Origin: an uncultured Candidatus Saccharibacteria bacterium
Lineage (GTDB): Bacteria; Patescibacteriota; Minisyncoccia; JACQLN01
Assembly: GCA_964365305.1 (NCBI GenBank)
Contig: CAYIPG010000002.1
Span: forward strand, 1 to 59,247
Direction of reading: 5' to 3'
DNA length: 59,247 nucleotides
Position 1 is the stretch's first letter; each line of letters opens with the position of its first letter. Of the stretch, positions 7,156 to 49,270 are shown piece by piece. Below the pieces are notes generated by a model. That model was not told the origin of the DNA and did no database searches. It saw only the letters and a program-made list of their open reading frames with translations. The position numbers and the translations under genes were made by a program.

Positions 7156-8226
7156 ATGGAGAATTATCAGCGAGAAATTGAGGACTTATTGGCTTTAGCC
7201 GCCGAACAAGGGGCTTCGGATTTGCATATCGCGCCGGGCCGTCATCCGACTTTAAGAATAGACGGCGAACTAATCCAATTGGTCCAAAGACCTATGGTGA
7301 CTCCTGAAAGTTCCCAGGGCTTATGCTTGGCTTTGATGGATGCCGAAAAACAGGCCAAATTTCAAAAAGAAAAAGAAATTGATTTCGCATTTGGTTTTAG
7401 GGATAAAGTCAGATTTAGAACCAATGTTTATATTCAAAAGGGTTATATCTCGGCGGCTTTGCGGTTGATATCCTATAATATCAGGACCTTGGAAGAGTTA
7501 AAATTGCCACAGGTAATTCGTGAGCTTACTCGCCCCAGCCAGGGTTTTGTGCTGGTGACTGGGCCGACCGGTCATGGCAAATCAACCACCTTGGCGGCTA
7601 TGGTGGATGAAATTAATCACTCTCGGGGAGATCATATTATCACCATTGAGGATCCGATTGAATATGTTTTTACGCCCGATAAAGCCATGGTGGAGCAGCG
7701 CGAAGTGGGTACGGACACTTTGAGTTTTCGCCGGGCTTTAAGGTCGGTTTTCAGGCAAGATGCCGATGTGGTGATGTTGGGAGAAATGCGCGACCGCGAG
7801 ACCATCTCCACCGCCGTGACCGCGGCTGAAACAGGGCATTTGATTTTTGCCACGCTCCACACCAACTCCGCGGCGCAGTCAGTCAACCGCATCATTGACA
7901 GTTTTCCTTCGGAACAACAGTCGCAGATTCGTTTTCAATTAGCCGGCACTTTGTTGGGTATTGTTTCACAACGGCTAATACCTCGCGTGGATGGCGGTTT
8001 GACGCCGGCGGTGGAGGTCTTGGTGGCCAATTATGCCGTGCGCAATCTTATTCGCGAAAATAAAGTTCATCAATTGGACTTAGTTATTGAGACCAGCACC
8101 GATAAGGGTATGATTTCGCTTAACAAATCGTTGTCCGAACTGGTGCGACAAGGGCAAATATCGTTAGAGAACGCCGAGACCTATTCGCTTAATCCATCAG
8201 AGTTGGCCAGTATGCTTTCCCGTTAG
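7156..8226 (+). CDS. pilT: twitching motility ATPase PilT
   Basis: Walker A GPTGHGKSTT and PilT-like length. The track start 7132 sits in the loop of a hairpin, so ATG 7156 is preferred. Confidence 0.9.
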   Translation: MENYQREIEDLLALAAEQGASDLHIAPGRHPTLRIDGELIQLVQRPMVTPESSQGLCLALMDAEKQAKFQKEKEIDFAFGFRDKVRFRTNVYIQKGYISAALRLISYNIRTLEELKLPQVIRELTRPSQGFVLVTGPTGHGKSTTLAAMVDEINHSRGDHIITIEDPIEYVFTPDKAMVEQREVGTDTLSFRRALRSVFRQDADVVMLGEMRDRETISTAVTAAETGHLIFATLHTNSAAQSVNRIIDSFPSEQQSQIRFQLAGTLLGIVSQRLIPRVDGGLTPAVEVLVANYAVRNLIRENKVHQLDLVIETSTDKGMISLNKSLSELVRQGQISLENAETYSLNPSELASMLSR

Positions 8227-8327
8227 AACACGATGCCAATATACGAATTTGTACGAATGATACTAATTAAAATTCGAATAACCTATTCGTATAATTCGCA
8301 TGCATTTGTAGATTAGCATCGCATATT
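8227..8327 (+). repeat. TACGAAT-family junction cassette, copy 3
   Basis: Spans pilT stop to pilC ATG. CGTATAAT variant. Confidence 0.9.
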
Positions 8328-9536
8328 ATGAAGTTTAATTATCAAGCCCGTACGCCTCAAGGCGAAGTTCAGACCGGCACAGTGGAAGCGCCCAACCGCG
8401 AGGCGGCCATAGAAACCCTTCAACGCTATCGCCTCACTATTTTGGAGATTGTCGGCGAACAAAAAGGATTATTGGCTTCTTTGGGCGGCGAACTATCTTT
8501 TATCAATCGCGTCAAGAACCAGGACATAGTTATTTTTTCGCGCCAACTGGCGGTTTTGTTTGACGCCCAAGTGCCTTTAGTTCAGGCGTTAAGAACGCTG
8601 GCGGAACAGTCACCTGTTGGGCTCAAAAAAATAATTATGGAGATTGCCTCCGATGTGGATGGCGGCACGGCTTTTTCCCAGTCGCTGGAAAAATTTCCCA
8701 AAGTGTTCTCTTTTTTTTATGTTTCAGTGACGCGGGCCGGCGAGGCCTCGGGGCGGTTGCAGGAGGTCTTAAATTATCTGGCCGATCACGAAGAAAAAAG
8801 CTACGATCTTAATAAAAAAGTAAAAGGCGCGCTTACCTATCCTATTTTTATTGTTTCGTCTTTGGTGCTGGTGGGGGCGTTGATGATGATTTTTGTGGTG
8901 CCTCAACTCACCGCGGTGTTGCAGGAATCGGGCCAAACACTGCCGCTAGTCACCCGAGTCATAATTGGCTTGAGCAATTTTCTTAAAAACTACTGGTGGT
9001 TGGGGCTTATCATAATCATCAGCGCGATCGTAGGCGGGCGATATTATCTTAAGACCCCAATGGGACAAAGAAACTGGGATAAATTAAAATTACGGCTACC
9101 TATTTTCGGCAATGTTTTTCGGAAAATTTATTTGACGCGTTTTTCGGAAAATTTAGGCACTTTAATAAAAGGCGGTATCCCCATAATCCAATCCTTAACC
9201 ATTACGGCTGATGTGGTGGGCAACGCGGTTTTTAAGGATGTTATAATGAGAGCGCGCGAAGAAGTTCGTAAAGGCAATACTATGCACTCGGTGTTTTCCA
9301 CAGAGAAGACCATGCCTATTATGGTCTCCCAAATGATCAGTATTGGCGAACAAACCGGCAAACTTGATCTGATTTTAGCCAAAATTGCCTCATTTTATCA
9401 GAAAGATGTGGATAATCTGGTAGAAAACATGGCGGAGTTGATCCAGCCGATTTTGATTTTAGTGCTGGGCGCCGCCGCCGGAATTTTAGTTGCGGCGATT
9501 TTACTTCCGATATATAATTTGAGCAGTGGACTTTAG
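8328..9536 (+). CDS. pilC: type IV pilus platform protein PilC (GspF family)
   Basis: Two T2SS-F repeats and three TM regions. Typical 400-aa length. Confidence 0.9.
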   Translation: MKFNYQARTPQGEVQTGTVEAPNREAAIETLQRYRLTILEIVGEQKGLLASLGGELSFINRVKNQDIVIFSRQLAVLFDAQVPLVQALRTLAEQSPVGLKKIIMEIASDVDGGTAFSQSLEKFPKVFSFFYVSVTRAGEASGRLQEVLNYLADHEEKSYDLNKKVKGALTYPIFIVSSLVLVGALMMIFVVPQLTAVLQESGQTLPLVTRVIIGLSNFLKNYWWLGLIIIISAIVGGRYYLKTPMGQRNWDKLKLRLPIFGNVFRKIYLTRFSENLGTLIKGGIPIIQSLTITADVVGNAVFKDVIMRAREEVRKGNTMHSVFSTEKTMPIMVSQMISIGEQTGKLDLILAKIASFYQKDVDNLVENMAELIQPILILVLGAAAGILVAAILLPIYNLSSGL

Positions 9537-9645
9537 ACGATGCCAATATACAAATTTATGCGAATGACACGAATAATTATACGAATAAAAATGCATTTGT
9601 GTATCTATTAGTATAATTCGCATGTCATTCGTAGATTAGCATCGC
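9537..9645 (+). repeat. TACGAAT-family junction cassette, copy 4
   Basis: Starts at the pilC stop. Followed by 33 nt of A/T-rich sequence before the pilin ATG. Confidence 0.88.
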
Positions 9646-9678
9646 AATTAATAAATTATAAAAAATAGATATATCCAT

Positions 9679-10143
9679 ATGAACAAATTTAGAAAGGGTT
9701 TTACTTTGGTCGAATTATTAGTCGTTATCGCTATCATCGGCATTTTGGCCTCGGTGGTGTTGGTCTCGTTAAACAGCGCTCGCGGCAAAGCCCGAGACGC
9801 CCGCAGAATTGCCGACTTGCACCAGGTGGTTTTGGCGTTAGAAAATTCTTACGATGCTAGCCAAGCATACCCAACTCAAGATACTGGAAATGTTATTCCT
9901 GCCGTTTTGGTCACAGGCGGTCAATTAACGGTTGTACCAACTGACCCAACGAACAGTGGTTCCTATATTTATACTTATAACTCATCTGGTTGTACTGTCG
10001 CTAATCAAAGCTTTACGCTCAAAGCTGTATTGGAGAATAATAATACCGCTGTTAACAGCGATGTTGATGGTACTCAATGCACTCTGGCTTGCGGTACTGG
10101 AGGGACTGCTGGTAATGAAAAGGAATATTGTATAAAACCGTAA
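9679..10143 (+). CDS. type IV pilin (prepilin with N-terminal cleavage/methylation motif)
   Basis: KGFTLVELLVVIAIIGILA class III signal. C-terminal cysteines. Confidence 0.9.
   Translation: MNKFRKGFTLVELLVVIAIIGILASVVLVSLNSARGKARDARRIADLHQVVLALENSYDASQAYPTQDTGNVIPAVLVTGGQLTVVPTDPTNSGSYIYTYNSSGCTVANQSFTLKAVLENNNTAVNSDVDGTQCTLACGTGGTAGNEKEYCIKP
9724..9828 (+). repeat. 105-nt block shared with pilin 2 (104/105 identical)
   Basis: Direct comparison of 9724-9828 with 10210-10314. The single difference is GCCGACTTG versus GCCGATTTG. Confidence 0.9.
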
Positions 10144-10158
10144 TAAATTATTTTTATC

Positions 10159-10638
10159 ATGAAAAATAAAAAATTCTCATCCGGGTTCACATTAGTAGAG
10201 TTGTTGGTGGTTATCGCTATCATCGGCATTTTGGCCTCGGTGGTGTTGGTCTCGTTAAACAGCGCTCGCGGCAAAGCCCGAGACGCCCGCAGAATTGCCG
10301 ATTTGCACCAGGTGACGCTGGCGTTGGAAAATTATAACGACACTAACCGAAACTATCCCGCGACTCTTTCGTTATTAGTGCCAACTTATATGTCGGCCTC
10401 ACCCAAAGATCCTCAAACATCCGCCGATTATAAATACGCGGCTTTGGGTTCGGGCGCGACCTGCAGTAATTATCATTTAGGAGCTGTTTTGGAAAACTCT
10501 ACCCATGCTTCTTTAACTACCGATTCTGATGCTGCGGCGGGGACTGTTTGTACCGGTAGCGACTCTGACTTTGGTGGTGGCACCACCGATTGCGCGGCTG
10601 GCGCCGGCACTGAAGCATGTTACGATGTTAAGCCGTAA
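10159..10638 (+). CDS. type IV pilin paralog 2
   Basis: SGFTLVELLVVIAIIGILA. The N-terminal block is nearly identical at the nucleotide level to pilin 1. Confidence 0.9.
   Translation: MKNKKFSSGFTLVELLVVIAIIGILASVVLVSLNSARGKARDARRIADLHQVTLALENYNDTNRNYPATLSLLVPTYMSASPKDPQTSADYKYAALGSGATCSNYHLGAVLENSTHASLTTDSDAAAGTVCTGSDSDFGGGTTDCAAGAGTEACYDVKP
10210..10314 (+). repeat. 105-nt block shared with pilin 1
   Basis: See 9724-9828. Confidence 0.9.
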
Positions 10639-10645
10639 AGTAGTT

Positions 10646-10720
10646 TTTAGGTGTTAGGGTATTAGGAAATTAGGCGGTTAGTTTTTGATCTAAAATCCTA
10701 ACTCTTAATATCCTAATTCC
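10646..10720. repeat. TTAGG/CCTAA word-repeat hairpin element (pilin 2 to pilin 3)
   Basis: TTAGGTGTTAGGGTATTAGGAAATTAGGCGGTTAG ... CTAAAATCCTAACTCTTAATATCCTAATTCC. Confidence 0.85.
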
Positions 10721-10729
10721 TGTTTCATT

Positions 10730-11170
10730 ATGATTCGTGATTCAAAAGGTTTTACCCTGGTTGAGCTTTTGGTGGTTATCGCTATTATCGGCATTCTAGC
10801 CACGGTGGCTATGGTATCTTTAAATTCAGCTAGAATAAAAGCCCGAGACACCAAAAGAGTAGCCGATATTCGGCAGATTGCTTTGGCTCTGGAATTTTGC
10901 TACAACGAAACCCAAAAATATATTCCCAGCGCTTCTTTTCCCGCCGCCGGCGCGCCCATGACTTGCGGCGGCAATACCTATATTACGACTATGCCGGCTG
11001 ATCCTAGCGGCGGGGATTATCAATATCGTGTTGATAGTGATGCCAATCCACAAAAATATGTTCTAGGAGTTGCCCTAGAAATACTGGCTAATCCTATTTT
11101 GGCTAGCAGTATTCACGGAACTGTTTTGGGACTGGATTGTGATACCCCAGTTTATTGCATTCAACCATAA
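10730..11170 (+). CDS. type IV pilin paralog 3
   Basis: KGFTLVELLVVIAIIGILA. Ends in YCIQP, like its paralogs. Confidence 0.88.
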   Translation: MIRDSKGFTLVELLVVIAIIGILATVAMVSLNSARIKARDTKRVADIRQIALALEFCYNETQKYIPSASFPAAGAPMTCGGNTYITTMPADPSGGDYQYRVDSDANPQKYVLGVALEILANPILASSIHGTVLGLDCDTPVYCIQP

Positions 11171-26038: not shown

Positions 26039-27754
26039 ATGGATAACGAAATAACATTATTTGCCGAGACCAATTTTCGCAACGAACAGCGGAAGTTTGG
26101 CGTTAAAACCGACGATCGCCGCCGGCATATGTATATCATGGGCAAAACTGGCATGGGCAAAACCACCTTGCTGGAGAACATGATTATTTCGGATATCATC
26201 CATGGCAACGGCGTGGGCTTTATAGATCCGCACGGCGATTCCGCCGAAAAGATTTTGGACTTTATTCCCGAAGACAGAATCAAAGATGTAATTTATTTTG
26301 ATCCGTCCGATGTTGATTGGCCCATCGCTTTTAACGCCATAGAAAATGTTGATCCCGAAAAAAAACATTTGGTGGCTTCGGGTTTGATGGGCGTGTTCAA
26401 AAAAATCTGGCCGGATGTTTGGTCGGCTCGGATGGAATATATTTTAAACAACACCATTCTGGCTTTGTTGGATTATCCCGGCGCCACTATTTTGGGCATA
26501 ATGAGAATGTTGTCGCATAAAGAATATCGCAAAGATGTGGTGGATAACATTAAAGATCCGGTGGTAAAATCGTTTTGGGTGGATGAGTTTGCCAAATATA
26601 CCGATCGTTTCGCGGCCGAGGCCACGCCGGCCATCCAAAACAAAGTTGGCCAGTTTCTTTCGGCGATGGTTATCCGCAATATCGTGGGCCAGCAAAAAAG
26701 CGCCATAGACATGAGAAAGGTTATGGACGAGGGCAAGATTTTAATAATGAACCTCTCCAAAGGGCGCATCGGCGAAGATAATTCTAAATTATTAGGCGGG
26801 TTGATGGTTACGAAATTACAGCTGGCAGCCATGAGCCGAGTGGATATTCCCGAAGAAACTCGCCGCGATTTTTATTTGTATGTGGACGAATTCCAAAATT
26901 TTGCCACGGAATCGTTTGCCAATATCCTTTCCGAAGCCCGCAAATACCGTTTGGCCTTGGTGTTGGCCAATCAGTATATTTCGCAGTTGATTCAAACCGT
27001 AGGCGGATCTAAAAGCACTTCGGTGCGCGATGCGATTTTTGGCAATGTGGGCACGATAGTGGCTTTTCGGGTGGGCGCCGAAGACGCTGAACTTTTGGAA
27101 AAAGAGTTCACGCCCGAGTTTTTGGCGGTGGACATTGTTAATTTAACCAAGCATCAAATTTATTTAAAATTAATGATAGACGGCATGGCCTCGCGCGCTT
27201 TTTCGGCCAACACCCTGCCGCCGTATCCCAAACCGGCCGTAAGTTATAGAAAAGAAATTATTGAATTTTCTAGAAAAACTTATGCCACCGCTAGAGAAAA
27301 AGTGGAGCGGGAAATTGCCGAGTGGGCCGGTTTTGACGCGGCGGATTTTGGTTACGCGCCGCTTGATCCACAAGAAAATACTTCTCTTAAAGTAGTTCCG
27401 CAAATAAGCGCCAGACCAGTCGCGTCTTCTTCGGTCGCTACCGGCGGGAAAAAATTATACGAGGCGGTCTGTTGGGAAGGCGGCGAAAAAATAATGGTGC
27501 CGTTCCAGCCCGATGGGGTTCGGCCGATTTATTGCAAAAAACATATTTCTAGATTAACCGAGTTAAAACAGCAAAGCGTCTCTGGCGCGCCTCAAACGGT
27601 CTCGCTCCAAGAGGCCTTGTCTAAAAACATCAGCAACTTTAAGCCCGCCAGTCAGGTCGGATTTAAAAAGAAAAGGCCGCCCAAAAATCCTCATTCCGAA
27701 CCTGATTTAGAAGAACTCCGTTCTTTGTTGTCCGGCATCAAACCCACTTTATAA
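26039..27754 (+). CDS. VirD4/TraD/HerA-like P-loop ATPase (type IV coupling-protein-like) with C-terminal Cys-rich tail
   Basis: Walker A GKTGMGKTT, Walker B YLYVDEFQNF. C-terminal CWEGGEKIMVPFQPDGVRPIYCKKH. Confidence 0.8.
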   Translation: MDNEITLFAETNFRNEQRKFGVKTDDRRRHMYIMGKTGMGKTTLLENMIISDIIHGNGVGFIDPHGDSAEKILDFIPEDRIKDVIYFDPSDVDWPIAFNAIENVDPEKKHLVASGLMGVFKKIWPDVWSARMEYILNNTILALLDYPGATILGIMRMLSHKEYRKDVVDNIKDPVVKSFWVDEFAKYTDRFAAEATPAIQNKVGQFLSAMVIRNIVGQQKSAIDMRKVMDEGKILIMNLSKGRIGEDNSKLLGGLMVTKLQLAAMSRVDIPEETRRDFYLYVDEFQNFATESFANILSEARKYRLALVLANQYISQLIQTVGGSKSTSVRDAIFGNVGTIVAFRVGAEDAELLEKEFTPEFLAVDIVNLTKHQIYLKLMIDGMASRAFSANTLPPYPKPAVSYRKEIIEFSRKTYATAREKVEREIAEWAGFDAADFGYAPLDPQENTSLKVVPQISARPVASSSVATGGKKLYEAVCWEGGEKIMVPFQPDGVRPIYCKKHISRLTELKQQSVSGAPQTVSLQEALSKNISNFKPASQVGFKKKRPPKNPHSEPDLEELRSLLSGIKPTL

Positions 27755-27755
27755 T

Positions 27756-28223
27756 TTATTTTGGTTTATCTAAGTTGAATACAACCTCATCCCCCAGGTT
27801 TATTTTATTGTTTCCTAACCAACCGGAGTTAACTTCTAAAACATATTTTGCTGGCCGGTCTGGTTTGAAAGCGTATTTAGGATAGGTGTCGGGCGTGGCG
27901 TTTTTAAAAATATCAACAATTTTCATATCGGCTCCGATCCAAATCAGGTCCAGTGGAAAATTCATGTCTTTCATCCAGAAGATGTGGTAGTCCTCGTTAT
28001 CAAAAACAAATAACATGCCGGCGTTAGGGAGAAGGGCGGTCCTTCCCGAAAGTCCCGAAGTTCTTTTTTCGGGAGTGTCGGCGATTTCCACGCTTACAGC
28101 CGCTAGGCCTATTTTTATGACGGGCGGATTTGTTTTGATCGGCTGATTTTGAGTTTTTTCGGTAAGAAAGATAATTATAGCCAGAACTATCAAAACGGGT
28201 GAGAGTATTTTTAGTATTTTCAT
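27756..28223 (-). CDS. DUF192 domain protein
   Basis: Signal/TM, then GLSGR...GMLFVF...FWMKDMNFPLDLIWI, typical of DUF192. Confidence 0.8.
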   Translation of the reverse strand: MKILKILSPVLIVLAIIIFLTEKTQNQPIKTNPPVIKIGLAAVSVEIADTPEKRTSGLSGRTALLPNAGMLFVFDNEDYHIFWMKDMNFPLDLIWIGADMKIVDIFKNATPDTYPKYAFKPDRPAKYVLEVNSGWLGNNKINLGDEVVFNLDKPK

Positions 28224-28376: not shown

Positions 28377-29504
28377 ATGAACGAGCAAACAAAAAATAAG
28401 AAAGTATTTGTAGCTATATCAGGCGGAGTTGATAGTAGCGTTGCTTTGTTGTTGCTTAAAAATCAAGGTTACGATGTTACGGGCGTGTTTATGAAAAACT
28501 GGGCTGATCCGGCTTGGCCTTGCCCGTGGGCCGAAGATCGCGCCGACGCTTTGCGTGTCTGCGTCAAGTTGGGCATTCCTTTTGAGACCTTTGATTTTAC
28601 AAAGGAATACAAAGCCACGGTGGTTGATTATATGATTCGCGAATATACTTCGGGCCGAACACCTAACCCCGATGTGATGTGCAACAAAGAAATAAAGTTT
28701 GGCTTGTTTTTTGATAGAGCGATGCAGATGGGCGCGGATTATATCGCCACAGGGCATTATGTTAGGTTAGCGACAAGTGACAAGGGACAAGGGACAAGTA
28801 AGAATCAAAACATGTCGCTTCTACGGGCTCGCGATCTAAATAAAGATCAAAGTTATTTTTTATGGACTTTAACCCAAGCCAGGCTTAGGCAATGTTTGTT
28901 TCCGATCGGTGAAATTGAATCCAAAACCGAAGTTCGCCGGCTAGCGGCCGAATATAATCTGCCCGTGGCCGATAAGAAGGACTCGCAGGGTATTTGTTTT
29001 ATGGGGCCGGTGGATGTGGCCGAGTTTATCAAACCATATGTCAAAACCGCTATCGGAGATATTGTAACCACCTCCGGCCAAAAAATCGGCACGCACGCCG
29101 GTTTGGATTTTTTCACTATCGGTCAGCGCAAAGGCATCGGCATCGGCGGCACCGGGCCGTATTATGTGACTCAAAAAAATTACGAAACCAATACTTTGGT
29201 AGTTGCGCCAGCTGCTGATCAAACTTCTTTAGAGTCCAGCTCGCTTATTGCAAGCGATATAAGTTTCGTAAACGATCTCACGAGCATGCGATCGCATGCT
29301 CGTGAGATCGGAGAAGAATCAATCAAGATACAAGCATCAATTCGATATCGGCAAGAACCTGTTCCAGCGACTTTATCTAAGGTCGGAGATGATAAGTGGC
29401 GAGTAGATTTTGAAACTCCCGTCCGCGCTATCACCCCCGGCCAGTCGGTGGTTTTTTATCAGAGCGAAGAAATGCTCGGGGGAGGTGTTATTGACATAGT
29501 ATAG
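28377..29504 (+). CDS. mnmA: tRNA 2-thiouridine(34) synthase
   Basis: PP-loop SGGVDSS, KDQSYFLW, and C-terminal domain. ATG 28377 preferred over TTG 28362. Confidence 0.92.
   Translation: MNEQTKNKKVFVAISGGVDSSVALLLLKNQGYDVTGVFMKNWADPAWPCPWAEDRADALRVCVKLGIPFETFDFTKEYKATVVDYMIREYTSGRTPNPDVMCNKEIKFGLFFDRAMQMGADYIATGHYVRLATSDKGQGTSKNQNMSLLRARDLNKDQSYFLWTLTQARLRQCLFPIGEIESKTEVRRLAAEYNLPVADKKDSQGICFMGPVDVAEFIKPYVKTAIGDIVTTSGQKIGTHAGLDFFTIGQRKGIGIGGTGPYYVTQKNYETNTLVVAPAADQTSLESSSLIASDISFVNDLTSMRSHAREIGEESIKIQASIRYRQEPVPATLSKVGDDKWRVDFETPVRAITPGQSVVFYQSEEMLGGGVIDIV
28772..28799 (+). repeat. four tandem heptamers GACAAG(T/G) inside mnmA
   Basis: GACAAGT GACAAGG GACAAGG GACAAGT. Bracketed by AGCGACA / TGTCGCT. 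Confidence 0.85.
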
Positions 29505-29573: not shown

Positions 29574-29909
29574 ATGACCAGAAAACCCCGAGAAGCTACA
29601 TCAAAGCAAAAAGAAGTTCTTGTCCGTATGGGGATCTTGTCTCGAGAAAAGGCCGAAGATCTTTTCTTCACGGAGGCAAGTTACCTTCTTCGGATTAATC
29701 TGGCCGCCAGTGGATTGGAGAAAGTACGCAATGCTGCTAAATCCCTAAATGTGGGTGATGATGTCGAATATCATGGGACTATTTGCAGGGTTGTCACTAT
29801 CCACGAGCTTCGTCCGAAGGGTGTGTTCTGTAACATGAACAATGTCACCATCCAACCGCCGGAGGGTAGGAAGAAGACAGTTCAGGCAAACAGCCTTAAG
29901 AAGGTTTAA
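29574..29909 (+). CDS. hypothetical protein (GC-richer ORFan upstream of wHTH-Cas2-like gene A)
   Basis: SD AAAGGA 6-7 nt upstream and its own intrinsic terminator. Codon usage visibly differs from neighbours. Confidence 0.65.
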   Translation: MTRKPREATSKQKEVLVRMGILSREKAEDLFFTEASYLLRINLAASGLEKVRNAAKSLNVGDDVEYHGTICRVVTIHELRPKGVFCNMNNVTIQPPEGRKKTVQANSLKKV

Positions 29910-29946
29910 TTTTGAAAGACCACCAGATCTTTAGGGTTCAACAAAA

Positions 29947-29980
29947 GGGAGATTGCGGAAAAACGCATCTCCCTTTTTTA
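29947..29980 (+). terminator. intrinsic terminator of ORFan 29574-29909
   Basis: GGGAGATTGCG-GAAAAA-CGCATCTCCC followed by TTTTTT. Confidence 0.8.
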
Positions 29981-30048
29981 TTTTCTCGCTTTAATCCAAT
30001 TTTAACCCAAGCCCTGTCACATGCTATACTTTTAAAATATTATACTTT

Positions 30049-30076
30049 GCATGAGATAACGATCGTTATCTCATGC
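30049..30076. repeat. 28-bp perfect palindrome GCATGAGATAACGATCGTTATCTCATGC upstream of wHTH-Cas2-like gene A
   Basis: Follows a TATACT -10-like box. The 26-bp core is identical to 30695-30720. Confidence 0.92.
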
Positions 30077-30129
30077 AATATTTAGTCCAATATCAAATTA
30101 TATATCAAGCTATATATCAACAAACTATT

Positions 30130-30699
30130 ATGAAATCCGGTGGGAAATTACAAAGATTGGGTCCAAATCAGCAAAAGGTTTTATTGCTTTTATTTGGCGG
30201 GGTGGGATTAATGTTATCCCAATCCATTAAGACACAATTTAGAGTTATTAAAGAGGTCTCTAAAGAATGGAAAAATATAAATAATTTGAGTTTGAGAAGA
30301 GCGATTACTACTTTATATAAATCCAAACTTATTTTAGAAAAAGAAAATCCAGACGGGACGACCACTATGTTTTTAACTGAAAAGGGTAAAGAGAAGGCCA
30401 TCACTTTTAATATAGAAACAATAAAAATTATGTCGCCAAAGAGATGGGATAAAAAATGGCGGTTAGTTGTCTTTGATATACCGGAAAAGAAAAGAAAGGC
30501 TCGCGATGCTTTGAGAGAGGTATTAAAGAAGATGGAGTTTTATGAATATCAAAAAAGCATTTTTATTCACCCTTACCATTGTAGAGATGAGTTAGATTAT
30601 ATCATTGAATTTTTTAGGATGAGACCTTATGTTAGGTTAATTGTGTCGGAGGAATTAGATAATGAATTACATCTTAGAAAGATTTTCAACCTATCATGA
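30130..30699 (+). CDS. winged-helix (PaaX-N-like) plus Cas2/VapD-like domain protein
   Basis: WDKKWRLVVFDIPEKKRKARDALREVLKKMEFYEYQKSIFIHPY matches the Cas2-like beta1-alpha1 pattern with conserved Asp. The track N-terminus from 30073 is low-complexity repeat DNA. Confidence 0.75.
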   Translation: MKSGGKLQRLGPNQQKVLLLLFGGVGLMLSQSIKTQFRVIKEVSKEWKNINNLSLRRAITTLYKSKLILEKENPDGTTTMFLTEKGKEKAITFNIETIKIMSPKRWDKKWRLVVFDIPEKKRKARDALREVLKKMEFYEYQKSIFIHPYHCRDELDYIIEFFRMRPYVRLIVSEELDNELHLRKIFNLS

Positions 30700-30724
30700 G
30701 ATAACGATCGTTATCTCATGATAG
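30691..30724. repeat. 34-bp perfect palindrome CTATCATGAGATAACGATCGTTATCTCATGATAG overlapping the stop codon of gene A
   Basis: Stop TGA 30697-30699 lies in the left arm. 26-bp core identical to the upstream copy. Confidence 0.92.
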
Positions 30725-32581: not shown

Positions 32582-34357
32582 ATGGCTAGAGAGAATATCT
32601 ATATTGACCTGAACGAAGATGTTCAGTCGGTCATAAGCAAAATTCAAGAAAGCGAATCGGAACAGGTGGATTTAATTATGCCCACCGGCGCTCGCGTGCT
32701 TCAGAATATTGTGGATACTCACTTGATTCGCGAAGCCGGGGCGAACGCCAATAAAGTTCTGACAGTGGTTACGAGCGACCTTATGGGCAAAATTTTTGCC
32801 CAGCGGGCCGGGCTTAGCGTGGCCAGCGAGAACGGCGCGAATGAAGAAAGTATTTTTGGAGCCGCAATTGTTGCGGGTGGTCGAATGAGCGATATTGTGC
32901 CACGGAAGAACACCCTTGCCTTAGCTTCAAAATCAACTGTAAAAAGCGGACTGTTCGCTCCGGTTAAGCCGTTGTCGTTCTCAAAAGTTAAATCAGCCGC
33001 CTTAAAATCAGTTGGTTCAAAAAAGAATATGCCTGCGGGCGAAGTTGCTAAAAACAAAGGTGAAATCGGAGCGGGATTTTTAAAATCATACCGAGAAGAA
33101 AGATCCAAAAATAGCGTTTTTGATGACTTAAGTAAAATCAACCGGAGAAAATCTTTTCTGCCGTTTAAAATAAGCGCTGCTGTCGTGGTGGCGGGTATTG
33201 TGGTTTTAACGGCGCTCGCGGGCGTAGTTGTTTTTTCTAAAGCGCTGCCTAAGGCCGAAATAATTATTTATCCGGCCAGAGAAAGCGTGGATGATAGCGT
33301 GGATGTTTTTATTTCCAGCCGTGATTCCCAAGCGGATTTAGCCAAAGGCATAATACCAGGGGAGTTGCTTACTTTGGAAAAAAGCGAAAATGGGGAATTT
33401 AGCGCCACCGGGCAAAAAGAGGTTTCGCAAAAAGCCAAAGGCAAGATAATTATCTATAATAGTTTTTCTTCACAGCCGCAAACATTCGTGGTTTCCAGAT
33501 TTCAAGCCGAAGGTGCCAATAGCGCCGCGGGCGGCCCCTCCACTGGAGTCGGGGCAGGCAAAATTTTTTGGACCACTAAAGGATTAACCGTTCCGGGCGC
33601 GATTATTAAAGATGGCAAGACCACGCCGGGCCAGATTACAACCGAAGTTATCGCGGCATCGCCGGGCGAGGCCTATAATATCGGCCCTTCCAAATTTATC
33701 ATGCCGGCTTTAAAAAATACGCCCAAGGCCGATAAAATATACGCCATGTCTGATTTGCCTATGGCGGGCGGACAGACAGGACAATCCACAGTGGTTTCCA
33801 ATGATGATGTTAATAAGGCCTATGATTCGCTTAAGGAAAAAATAAAGCCCCAGTTTCAAGGTCTAAAACAAAATTTGCCGGTTGGTTTTCAACTCTGGCC
33901 CGAGGCCTACAACGAAGAATTAGCCGAAAGTTCTAGCGCGCCCGAAGCGGGCGAGGCCGCCGATAAATTTAACGCCAACATAAAAATGGTGGCGCGGGCA
34001 ATTGTGTTTAGATCGCAGGATTTGGATAATTATATTAACCAGCAAATATCGGCTGGCCTGAAAGAAGGCAAAACCTTGCTAATGTCTTCCAAAGAAATTT
34101 CGTTTATAAAATCGCCGGTGGTGGATTACCAAAAAAACGCCATTACGGCTTCGCTGGCGGTACGTTATGATGTTATAGACAATTTTGACGCCGAAGATTT
34201 TAAGAAATCAATTCTCAAGAAAAAAATTTCGGATGTCAATAAAATAAAGTCCGGCTATAAAAATATTGAACGGGTAGAGGTTAAATTTTGGCCCTTTTGG
34301 GTGCGCCGCGTGCCGGCCAATTCCGATCGTGTGACTATAAAAATAGTGGGGATGTAA
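32582..34357 (+). CDS. large hypothetical membrane-anchored protein
   Basis: 591-aa ORF with one central TM segment. No recognised catalytic motif. Confidence 0.65.
   Translation: MARENIYIDLNEDVQSVISKIQESESEQVDLIMPTGARVLQNIVDTHLIREAGANANKVLTVVTSDLMGKIFAQRAGLSVASENGANEESIFGAAIVAGGRMSDIVPRKNTLALASKSTVKSGLFAPVKPLSFSKVKSAALKSVGSKKNMPAGEVAKNKGEIGAGFLKSYREERSKNSVFDDLSKINRRKSFLPFKISAAVVVAGIVVLTALAGVVVFSKALPKAEIIIYPARESVDDSVDVFISSRDSQADLAKGIIPGELLTLEKSENGEFSATGQKEVSQKAKGKIIIYNSFSSQPQTFVVSRFQAEGANSAAGGPSTGVGAGKIFWTTKGLTVPGAIIKDGKTTPGQITTEVIAASPGEAYNIGPSKFIMPALKNTPKADKIYAMSDLPMAGGQTGQSTVVSNDDVNKAYDSLKEKIKPQFQGLKQNLPVGFQLWPEAYNEELAESSSAPEAGEAADKFNANIKMVARAIVFRSQDLDNYINQQISAGLKEGKTLLMSSKEISFIKSPVVDYQKNAITASLAVRYDVIDNFDAEDFKKSILKKKISDVNKIKSGYKNIERVEVKFWPFWVRRVPANSDRVTIKIVGM
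33527..33558 (+). repeat. 32-nt GC-rich hairpin element, in frame within ORF 32582-34357
   Basis: GCGGGCGGCCCCTCCACTGGAGTCGGGGCAGG. Encodes AGGPSTGVGAG in the same element frame. Confidence 0.85.
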
Positions 34358-48441: not shown

Positions 48442-48542
48442 CTGTTTTGTTTGAATGAATATAGTCAAAAAAGATAAAAAAAGGTTACAATTCTATGCGA
48501 ACGCCTTTTATTGTAACCTTTAATTTAAGACCACTCGAGATT

Positions 48543-49088
48543 CTATGCGAGTTCAAATTTAAGTTTTAACTCGGCTTCATTTGTGATTTTTGTGGCAGTT
48601 ACTAAACGCACATAAGGCCGCAATTGAAAAAATTCAGTAACAAAATTTATTTCATTTTCACATTCGTAGGGCAACACAAAAACACTTTTTTGATACAACA
48701 TAAATCCAAGCTCTTTTAGTTTTGATCTCAATAATTCACGCCTTTGTTTCTTTTTGTCGGGGATGTCGAATATCACCAAGCGCCACTTTTTATCCCATTG
48801 CTTCGGCAACTTTATTTTAATCTCATCGATATTATATTTGAGTACTTTCTTGGTGCCATCTTCTGTCAGCACAATTTTTATAGTTCCATCTCTATTTTCC
48901 TTAAAATCAACTAGGCGTTCATATTTAAATTCTTTTATCAACCGAATAAGATATTTTCGATCAAGATCTTTGAAAGCATTGTGAGTGGTCTTGATTATTT
49001 TGTAATATTTTTGGGGCGATCTAGTTAAACTCAAAGCTAAACCAGCACTTAGCAACAATAAGATTTTCTTTTTGGTGGATGTTCGCAT
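48543..49088 (-). CDS. winged-helix (PaaX-N-like) plus Cas2/VapD-like domain protein, paralog B
   Basis: WDKKWRLVIFDIPDKKKQRRELLRSKLKELGFMLYQKSVFVLPY. Clear paralog of 30130-30699. Confidence 0.78.
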   Translation of the reverse strand: MRTSTKKKILLLLSAGLALSLTRSPQKYYKIIKTTHNAFKDLDRKYLIRLIKEFKYERLVDFKENRDGTIKIVLTEDGTKKVLKYNIDEIKIKLPKQWDKKWRLVIFDIPDKKKQRRELLRSKLKELGFMLYQKSVFVLPYECENEINFVTEFFQLRPYVRLVTATKITNEAELKLKFELA

Positions 49089-49270
49089 TTAACTTTCTTC
49101 TCTTTGCTTGTGTTCGTAATAATAAAAGGTGTTAAAACTATGCGATCGCTTAAAATAAACACCATTTTATTTTACCATATTACCATAGTTACCATGTTGT
49201 TGTACATTGTTAAATGTAGAGATGATATATATTGCAGAGATGATGTGTATTTACCGCAATATAACCAATA

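Follow-up and report, generated by a model that had tools for sequence, protein, structure and literature searches.

Rickettsia palindromic elements (RPEs) are numerous sequences of 100–150 bp that lie in frame in genes and have no linked cognate protein gene. PaaX of Escherichia coli binds the 39-bp inverted repeat TGATTC-N27-GAATCA and represses its own promoter (PMC9493321), and HIP1 (short for highly iterated palindrome 1) has been related to CGATCG and GATC methyltransferases (PMC4390886). Here we analyzed a 59,247-nt contig (CAYIPG010000002.1, hereafter the window) from an uncultured Candidatus Saccharibacteria bacterium, in which a gene for a 189-residue protein (30130–30699, + strand) lies between two perfect palindromes. 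Its product is a 'mini-PaaX' that combines a probable winged helix (residues ~10–95) with a Cas2-like PaaX_M domain (residues 104–177). The layout of palindromes and gene is repeated in hundreds of related genomes and points to an undescribed partnership between a protein and its DNA sites, and our best reading of the palindromes is that they would be operators for autorepression, for which PaaX supplies the precedent.

The two palindromes share the 26-mer CATGAGATAACGATCGTTATCTCATG, located at 30050–30075 and 30695–30720 as the original prediction had stated. No further match occurs in the 59 kb when up to 3 mismatches are allowed, and none of 100 shuffles of the window contained a match at ≤3 mismatches. 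The upstream copy (30047–30078) is a perfect palindrome of 32 bp, longer than the 28 bp first reported, with the centre CGATCG, the inner core GAGATAACGA/TCGTTATCTC and the ends TTGCATGAG...CTCATGCAA; folded as RNA, it reaches −20.3 kcal/mol (z = −8.9). The downstream copy (30691–30724) is perfect over 34 bp, matches the upstream copy throughout its inner 26 bp and, as predicted, encloses the stop codon: its left arm carries the final two codons of the gene and the TGA (30697–30699), and the alaS ATG (30783) follows 75.5 bp after its centre. In mononucleotide shuffles of the window, the longest perfect palindrome never exceeded 20 bp. The identical palindrome–gene–palindrome structure is present in five independent assemblies of the source organism (L001–L005; L numbers denote compared loci) and is therefore no assembly artefact. 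ATG 30073, which opens a mechanically called open reading frame (ORF) of 208 residues, falls within the upstream palindrome; ATG 30130, 67.5 bp 3′ of that palindrome's centre, was taken as the start because an alignment of 38 homologues supports it, in agreement with the start first proposed.

The palindrome-bracketed architecture is conserved in the family. We surveyed 80 related loci in 270-bp windows up- and downstream of the gene, counting as strong any palindrome with a score of at least 10. Strong palindromes were present in 41/77 upstream and 49/74 downstream windows vs 9/947 background windows, and the CGATCG centre occurred in only one of those nine. At least one was found in 60 of the 80 loci and both in 34. 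Paired palindromes surround orthologues and paralogues alike, and the refuting condition set with the original prediction, their absence around orthologues in related genomes, did not hold. They are perfect or near-perfect over 24–46 bp, the upstream centres falling mostly at −30 to −90 and the others at or after the stop codon. The centre is CGATCG in 63 of 96 sites, and the rest are mostly variants differing by 1–2 bases (CTATCG/CGATAG, CTATAG, CGACCG/CGGTCG, CTGCAG). Sequence information resides mainly in this RCGA/TCGY centre, and arm complementarity, counted outward from the centre, is ≥0.9 as far as position 15, slips to 0.86 at position 16 and reaches background by position 21. In 44/77 loci a bare CGATCG lies ≤150 bp from the start, and in 46/77 one lies near the stop, vs 1 per 6.6 kb in the background. 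This ~24-fold enrichment beside family genes persists even at sites with eroded arms.

The invariant core CGATCG/GCGATCGC is also the HIP1 core, and given the link of HIP1 to methyltransferases in the source cited above, another factor, such as a CGATCG/GATC-specific methyltransferase or restriction system of the kind proposed for HIP1, could target the palindromes and make their link to the gene indirect. We regard this as most improbable. The hexamer enrichment is specific to family flanks, long palindromes occur in ~1% of background windows, and across the whole window CGATCG shows no over-representation (14 sites vs 10 expected); nor does such a factor leave a place for the paralogue-specific inner codes described below.

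The Cas2-like fold of the protein is supported by profile searches and by its structural model. PaaX_M (PF20803, 'PaaX protein central Cas2-like domain') matched the focal protein at E = 1.2e-22 (80.2 bits vs a cut-off of 24) and matched 68 of 69 family members. CRISPR_Cas2 (PF09827; 26.9 bits vs 23.8) and TIGR01573 (26.4 vs 24.5) passed their cut-offs through β1–α1 only (residues 110–147). A Foldseek search with an AlphaFold model (predicted local distance difference test, pLDDT, 77) returned Cas2 structures as best matches (8ia4, 5zyf, 2ivy, 3exc; probability 1.0, TM-score ~0.5–0.66 relative to target), and the list also held PaaX 8a39, Rv0674 and VapD 6zi1. The β1 Asp, D116 in an FDIPE motif, had been noted as retained and is invariant in the homologue alignment. 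The N-terminal ~100 residues suggest a winged helix only weakly: STIV F93 is the best sequence match at a non-significant E of 0.21, the top Foldseek matches are winged-helix proteins, STIV F93 first, but with E of 0.1–1 and high root-mean-square deviation, and a few family members give sub-threshold matches to HTH_27, HxlR, TFIIE_alpha and DUF4364 and touch MarR-type profiles. Of the two domains originally called, the Cas2/VapD-like one is thus borne out by the Pfam search and Foldseek, and the winged helix is backed weakly; its label 'PaaX-N-like' does not follow, because no Pfam PaaX N-terminal family is among the listed matches of the focal protein. The PaaX C-terminal domain (PaaX_C) gave no match, as the protein stops after the Cas2-like domain, and TIGR02277, the PaaX equivalog, scored 30.6 bits vs a cut-off of 264.55 over profile positions 32–152 of 279 only. 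Within the PaaX/Cas2-like group, the family protein represents a new branch in truncated form. No transposase or recombinase was among the Pfam matches, and the family alignment contains no invariant His-x-His, as an HUH motif would have. A PADLOC scan yielded weak Cas2 matches only, and a known defence system was rejected on that ground.

The two palindromes of a gene evolve in concert, and changes in their arms are compensatory. Over the inner 28 bp, the up- and downstream copies that flank a gene share 87% identity, vs 45% for copies from different loci. The recent copying first offered, beside strong constraint, to explain the identity of the two 26-mers is better described as concerted evolution of both copies. 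Syntenic orthologues differ in their inner codes (ATAA, CATA, CATG, ATAG), and the sites have therefore co-evolved in place. Where the two copies around a gene disagree at an arm position, the opposite arm compensates for the change in 64 of 107 cases. A gap-free alignment of 91 sites, which were selected by palindrome score, has 90% of its cells paired vs 33–41% with a slid partner, 17 of 18 pairs changed on both sides, and a covariation score of 0.99 vs 0.22 when shuffled. A systematic instance is seen in the closest subfamily, where the TGA stop occupies positions 11–9 of the downstream copy's left arm and so makes that copy read ..CATGAG; the upstream copy usually reads ..CACGAG, and each copy has the matching partner base. 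The inner ~20 bp is common to both copies and paralogue-specific; the outer arms are free in sequence yet complementary. This symmetry could come from selection or from hairpin-templated correction of quasi-palindromes, a known mutational mechanism. A residue-to-base recognition code was also considered and rejected: 'IRSLY' seemed to accompany CAT- codes in the genome loci, an association broken by independent metagenome loci (CATG with IYSLY in L148, AATA with IRSLY in L141).

Promoter context differs between the window and its relatives. In the window, the best promoter-like matches, from a consensus scan only, lie just 5′ of the upstream palindrome (30002–30046, + strand): TTAACC-17-TATACT (30002–30030, with TG) and a second TATACT (30041–30046) that directly abuts the palindrome, as the original prediction had pointed out. 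If used, they would place the palindrome at the transcription start or in the 5′ leader. Relatives carry −10 boxes, often TGnTATAAT, between the upstream palindrome and the ATG, and the commonest distance from box end to ATG, 6–7 nt, suggests leaderless mRNAs with the palindrome over or beside the −35 region. A fixed spacing from palindrome centre to −10 box was rejected, the distribution being broad with weak modes at ~25 and 32–36. Between the upstream palindrome and the start codon, three ATATCAA motifs (30090–30120, + strand), likewise reported earlier, begin at 30090, 30102 and 30114 with an exact 12-bp period; tandem −10-like boxes are one possible role for them, secondary binding sites another. 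Tandem leader repeats of 10–13 bp occur in 5/33 relatives (p ≤ 0.05), often with a TATAAT-like box; the leaders concerned are those of L007, L010, L016, L033 and L061.

A second paralogue in the window (48543–49088, − strand) encodes 181 residues with PaaX_M at 1.5e-22 and is 43% identical to the first (tblastn, residues 30–189 of the first). The degenerate palindrome 5′ of it (49124–49168) keeps its GCGATCGC centre (49142–49149) and has partly eroded arms. The hairpin 3′ of it (48475–48521, − strand) consists of a 12-bp perfect outer stem and an 18-nt loop, which holds the decayed centre GCGTTCGC, followed by a T-run, and suggests a palindrome that was converted into an intrinsic terminator of the ordinary kind.

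This remodelled site, with its stem kept and its centre lost, is among the features that could speak for an element acting at the RNA level, in which transcript stem-loops would serve as 3′ stabiliser, terminator or processing site (some as 5′ hairpins), and their binding or cleavage by the Cas2/VapD-like domain might control the protein's own mRNA. Some Cas2 and VapD relatives are RNases, the stems are strong and covary, and the overlap with the stop codon means that the downstream copy is certainly transcribed. On the sense strand, G–U-compatible mismatches outnumber A–C mismatches 17 to 7 in downstream copies, and the centre variants are biased in orientation 12 to 3. We nevertheless consider an RNA-level role distinctly unlikely. 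The best-conserved part is the palindromic centre, which points to two-fold symmetric recognition of a duplex and is needless for an RNA loop, and in many relatives the likely promoter lies 3′ of the upstream palindrome, which would put that copy outside the mRNA. A T-run (≥7 T in the 11-nt tail) follows only 4/52 downstream and 8/44 upstream palindromes, and in the window a separate canonical terminator (~29946–29990) already stands 5′ of the upstream palindrome; ordinary terminators were rejected as a general explanation on these two grounds. No Rfam family reached its gathering score in the 59 kb, where no tRNA, rRNA or riboswitch was detected, and a known RNA family was rejected accordingly.

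The gene belongs to a large, lineage-specific family. All named homologues come from metagenome-assembled genomes (MAGs) of Patescibacteria, the Candidate Phyla Radiation (CPR). A full-library profile search gave 340 clusters (50% identity) at <1e-30 and 2587 at <1e-10, and species-representative genomes hold >591 family loci, several per genome; wherever several contigs of one genome could be compared, there were at least 2–3 paralogues. The order mnmA–gene–alaS, preceded by genes for a TrwB-like protein and DUF192, is found in the window, L007, L013, L083 (48% protein identity), L207 and L210 and is kept across lineages with only 48–63% protein identity. Other orthologue groups adjoin miaA/gatB, thrS/rseP, recR/dnaB/rplU, ligA/gatCA and rpoBC. 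Such vertical inheritance at fixed positions fits a resident regulator. Neither cas1 nor paa genes lie within ±4 kb in the gene table of an identical contig or among the neighbours in the gene tables of relatives' loci, and no CRISPR-like array was found in the window, all as originally stated; VapX was not found nearby either. A CRISPR remnant was rejected for want of an array or cas1.

The surroundings show several further features. The neighbourhood at 26039–28223 and 32582–34357, shared with L207 and L210, comprises a TrwB/VirD4-like coupling ATPase that carries a treble-clef zinc finger, DUF192, mnmA, the family gene and alaS, together with a protein of 571–591 residues that has no Pfam match. 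Insertions accumulate at one spot, between mnmA and the upstream palindrome: the window has ORF111 there (29574–29909; 111 residues), with its own canonical terminator, L207 has insertion sequence (IS) remnants (8214–9689; HTH_32, rve_3), and in L007 and L013 the spot is empty. ORF111 has no Pfam or PADLOC match and, among the loci fetched, occurs only in this organism; it was rejected as a recurrent cassette partner for that reason.

The original prediction had also raised the possibility that the palindromes mark the ends of a 676-bp mobile cassette, and they might be lox- or dif-like core sites at which a host recombinase excises, inverts or integrates the unit. loxP and dif are tyrosine-recombinase sites of arms around a short centre, to which arms of ~13–16 bp around a 6-bp centre, 32–34 bp in all, can be likened. 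Breakpoints and insertions cluster at the palindromes, as ORF111 in the window and the IS remnants in L207 do between mnmA and the upstream copy, and a related species has a single-palindrome 'empty' configuration. The species compared there are ~70% identical in DNA, and the configuration could be a direct-repeat deletion or an assembly collapse. Position and orientation are conserved over deep divergence, no recombinase is linked to the family gene in the gene tables inspected, and only 1 family locus was found in 2.9 million viral contigs. Because the gene position is fixed at 48–63% identity, the cassette is not a recently mobile one, and the within-genome paralogues, being only ~45–65% identical, rule out recent spread. 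We rejected a recently mobile cassette or phage cargo on the conserved synteny and the single viral match, and rate a recombination cassette of any kind as very unlikely.

Family palindromes also occur away from family genes. The window itself holds a third one, a perfect 38-bp palindrome inside mnmA (29273–29310; inner core GAGCATGCGA/TCGCATGCTC), with a CGATCG centre and an inner code unlike that of the focal gene. It lies in frame 213 bp before the mnmA stop, where it encodes DLTSMRSHAREIG as part of a variable linker; compared with E. coli MnmA and the closest orthologues, this linker is expanded in frame by the palindrome. The site holds a perfect palindrome in three lineages (window 29273–29310, L207 7913–7944, L210 9318–9349); the L207 copy is TACACCGAGCATACGATCGTATGCTCGGTGTA, the L210 centre is CTGCAG, and two substitutions, both doubly compensated, separate the window copy from that of L207 and alter the amino acids too. 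tsaD is a second tRNA-modification gene with an in-frame family palindrome, the 30-bp near-perfect ACAATGAGATTACGATCGTTATCTCATTGT (L198, 1862–1891), which encodes TMRLRSLSHC. In the MAG JAUYOV01, a paralogue on L212 is flanked by GAGCATACGATCGTATGCTC, and two identical 32-bp copies with the L212 core lie on other contigs, one within mnmA (L207) and one between a terminator and the promoter and Shine–Dalgarno sequence of the next gene (L211). These 32-mers are identical exactly to the palindrome ends, their flanks are unrelated and no target-site duplication is visible; the core and one outer arm match the palindromes around the third JAUYOV01 paralogue (L212). L206 has a similar remote copy 9 kb from a family gene. 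The genes after the L206 and L211 copies are unrelated, and a common target gene 3′ of remote palindromes was rejected on that basis.

A scan of metagenome contigs with one narrow pattern, which biases matches toward 'CATGAG'-type (downstream-type) copies, gave 36 fully palindromic sites, some of them GC-rich and probably unrelated; only 8 lay ≤150 bp from a family gene. Solo copies in AT-rich contigs adjoin gyrB, recA, murB and ABC-transporter genes, and one lies inside tsaD. In less biased sequence solo copies are rare, at 1 per 59 kb in the window and ~1 per 256 kb of background in the genome loci. Three related species show the arrangements murB–P–gene–P, P–gene–P–ORF100 and murB–P–ORF100 (P, palindrome), with homology breaking at the palindrome. 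Among the solo sites, L150 has two only 71 bp apart 3′ of gyrB (722–755 and 792–827), with like outer arms and different inner codes (CTTA, TCAG). On the 1.1-kb contig L159, an ORF resembling IS200/IS605-type TnpA by eye (545–952) is 110 bp away from a solo palindrome at the contig end, probably a coincidence or mis-join.

Solo copies call for caution, as many come from short metagenome contigs, and a perfect palindrome is a point at which short-read assemblies break and may be joined wrongly. A palindrome forms the end of contigs L146, L068 and L159, as it also does in L009 and L132, and a 1104-bp contig from the window's own sample, with matching coverage, consists solely of a paralogue and its two palindromes. 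Contigs more generally often end at, or consist of, a palindrome-bounded unit, and L184 is a 104-bp perfect palindrome resembling an assembly fold-back. Family palindromes probably fragment short-read assemblies, which may be why many homologues lie on 1–2-kb contigs.

These dispersed copies bear on a partnership like that of repetitive extragenic palindromic (REP) sequences and REP-associated tyrosine transposases (RAYTs), in which the palindromes would be self- or protein-propagated and the vertically inherited winged-helix–Cas2-like protein would nick, copy or maintain hairpin-forming repeats. Each paralogue is flanked by its own palindrome variant, as RAYT genes are by REPs, and most scan sites (all but 8 of 36) are dispersed from family genes. 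The JAUYOV01 copies bounded exactly at their ends, the in-frame copies in mnmA and tsaD, and the homology break at palindromes beside murB and ORF100 are of the kind that propagation would leave; arm covariation fits a hairpin substrate, and the predicted Cas2 fold with its invariant β1 Asp leaves room for nuclease activity. Set against this are the low copy number given above, the lack of an invariant His-x-His in the alignment and of any detected transposase or recombinase domain, and the age of the mnmA site, which is orthologous in three lineages and no fresh insertion. Many 'solo' copies, moreover, lie on short metagenome contigs, with L146, L068 and L159 ending at the palindrome, and the JAUYOV01 copies lack a visible target-site duplication. 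On balance we consider such a partnership unlikely, while giving it some weight.

We tentatively favour, at somewhat short of an even chance, a regulator with private palindromic operators that represses its own gene and acts at a few other sites. We infer that the focal protein binds these sites and that transcriptional control is the outcome. The protein would act as a homodimer, its winged-helix DNA-binding domain joined to a Cas2-fold dimerisation domain, with the long palindromes as cognate sites. Each paralogue would have a private palindrome built of an RCGATCGY centre, a paralogue-specific inner 'code' and ~16-bp arms. The copy beside or over the gene's own promoter would mediate autorepression as in PaaX, a second copy would act at the gene's 3′ end (in the window overlapping the stop, ~75 bp before alaS), and the few further genomic copies would define a small regulon. 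Hairpin or cruciform formation, or hairpin-templated correction during replication, would be part of the upkeep or working of the sites, because the arms stay self-complementary where their sequence is free to change.

Several observations weigh against such a regulator. Perfect palindromes of 32–42 bp are far longer and more symmetric than usual operators, and a protein reading the duplex does not alone account for the arm compensation (64/107; 90% vs 33–41%). The model gives no account of the site at the gene's own 3′ end, and the coding-region sites, in mnmA of three lineages and tsaD of L198, are odd places for an operator. The exactly 32-bp identity of two remote copies looks like copying, and no residue-to-code rule was found in the putative recognition helix. 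Strand asymmetries, with centres CTATCG vs CGATAG at 12 to 3 in gene orientation and G–T-type vs A–C-type arm mismatches at 26 to 13, hint at a single-strand or RNA component. Together, the outer-arm symmetry, the 3′ site, the coding site and the bounded remote copies suggest that hairpin or cruciform formation matters. A bolder proposal, and a long shot, is that a Cas1-independent Cas2-fold protein is the sequence-specific keeper, and occasional copier, of its own 32–40-bp hairpin-forming palindromes. If true, this would be a protein–repeat symbiosis like that of RAYTs and REP doublets forming hairpins (REPINs) on a different enzyme fold, and possibly a living analogue of an early association of a Cas2-type protein with palindromic repeats of CRISPR-repeat size.

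Two other repeats were noted in the window. An intergenic repeat, unrelated to the palindromes, is dispersed in 7 copies of ~60–160 nt that are 70–90% alike and rich in iterated (A/G)CGAAT (3255, 4820, 8212, 9519, 19120, 39320 and 59175; also 36497/37408), with the core ACACGATGCCAATATACGAATTTATGCGAATGATACTAAT...TATAATTCGCATGTCATTCG. At 9682–10913, a ~181-nt segment occurs three times at a spacing of 486–565 bp (85% and 66% identity) and is probably a repeated coding module.

CPR bacteria have tiny genomes in which almost no regulation has been characterised, and here a large lineage-specific protein family has probable DNA targets that can be read from sequence. With a constant centre and a variable inner code, the family offers a case for how paralogous DNA-binding proteins diversify in specificity, as well as for the long-term upkeep of perfect palindrome symmetry, even within a coding region, and for roles of the Cas2 fold outside CRISPR. 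On the practical side, the palindromes appear to fragment metagenome assemblies, and awareness of them helps genome reconstruction for these organisms. The literature searched contained no description of the family or its palindromes, and gene-bracketing, co-evolving perfect palindromes with a HIP1-like centre are, as far as can be told, undescribed.

Each of the nearest described systems shares some of these traits. HIP1 of cyanobacteria has the identical core octamer; it is an 8-bp motif hyper-abundant genome-wide, whereas the family core sits inside 32–42-bp palindromes that are rare genome-wide and tied to one gene family. Like RPEs, family palindromes lie in frame in housekeeping genes (mnmA in the window, L207 and L210; tsaD in L198), although RPEs are numerous, 100–150 bp long and without a cognate protein gene. 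With Cas2 and VapD the protein shares, judging from the model, the ferredoxin-like Cas2 fold and a β1 motif with an invariant Asp that scores just above the Cas2 cut-offs; unlike them, it has no cas1, CRISPR array or VapX nearby, only its β1–α1 aligns to Cas2 profiles, and the domain is fused to a putative DNA-binding domain. REPIN–RAYT systems likewise pair a vertically inherited single-copy gene with its own flanking palindromic repeat, match different paralogues to different repeat variants, and show extra dispersed copies and hairpin-type covariation, but the family protein is no HUH/Y1 transposase, its repeats are perfect and loop-less with a palindromic centre, and its copies number a handful rather than tens to hundreds. 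PaaX (E. coli, Pseudomonas; PDB 8a39, 3l09) has a winged helix followed by a Cas2-like PaaX_M (PF20803), the succession that is probable in the focal protein, and a long inverted repeat; in most relatives of the focal gene a palindrome lies upstream, where binding is predicted. The focal protein differs in lacking the C-terminal ligand domain (189 residues vs the 305-residue 8a39 chain) and in having mnmA, alaS, ligA, gatCAB, miaA, thrS, rpoBC and the like, and no paa genes, as neighbours across the family. Its sites, unlike those of PaaX, are palindromic over their full length, with a conserved centre, and stand at both ends of the gene, and each genome carries several paralogues, each with a site of its own.

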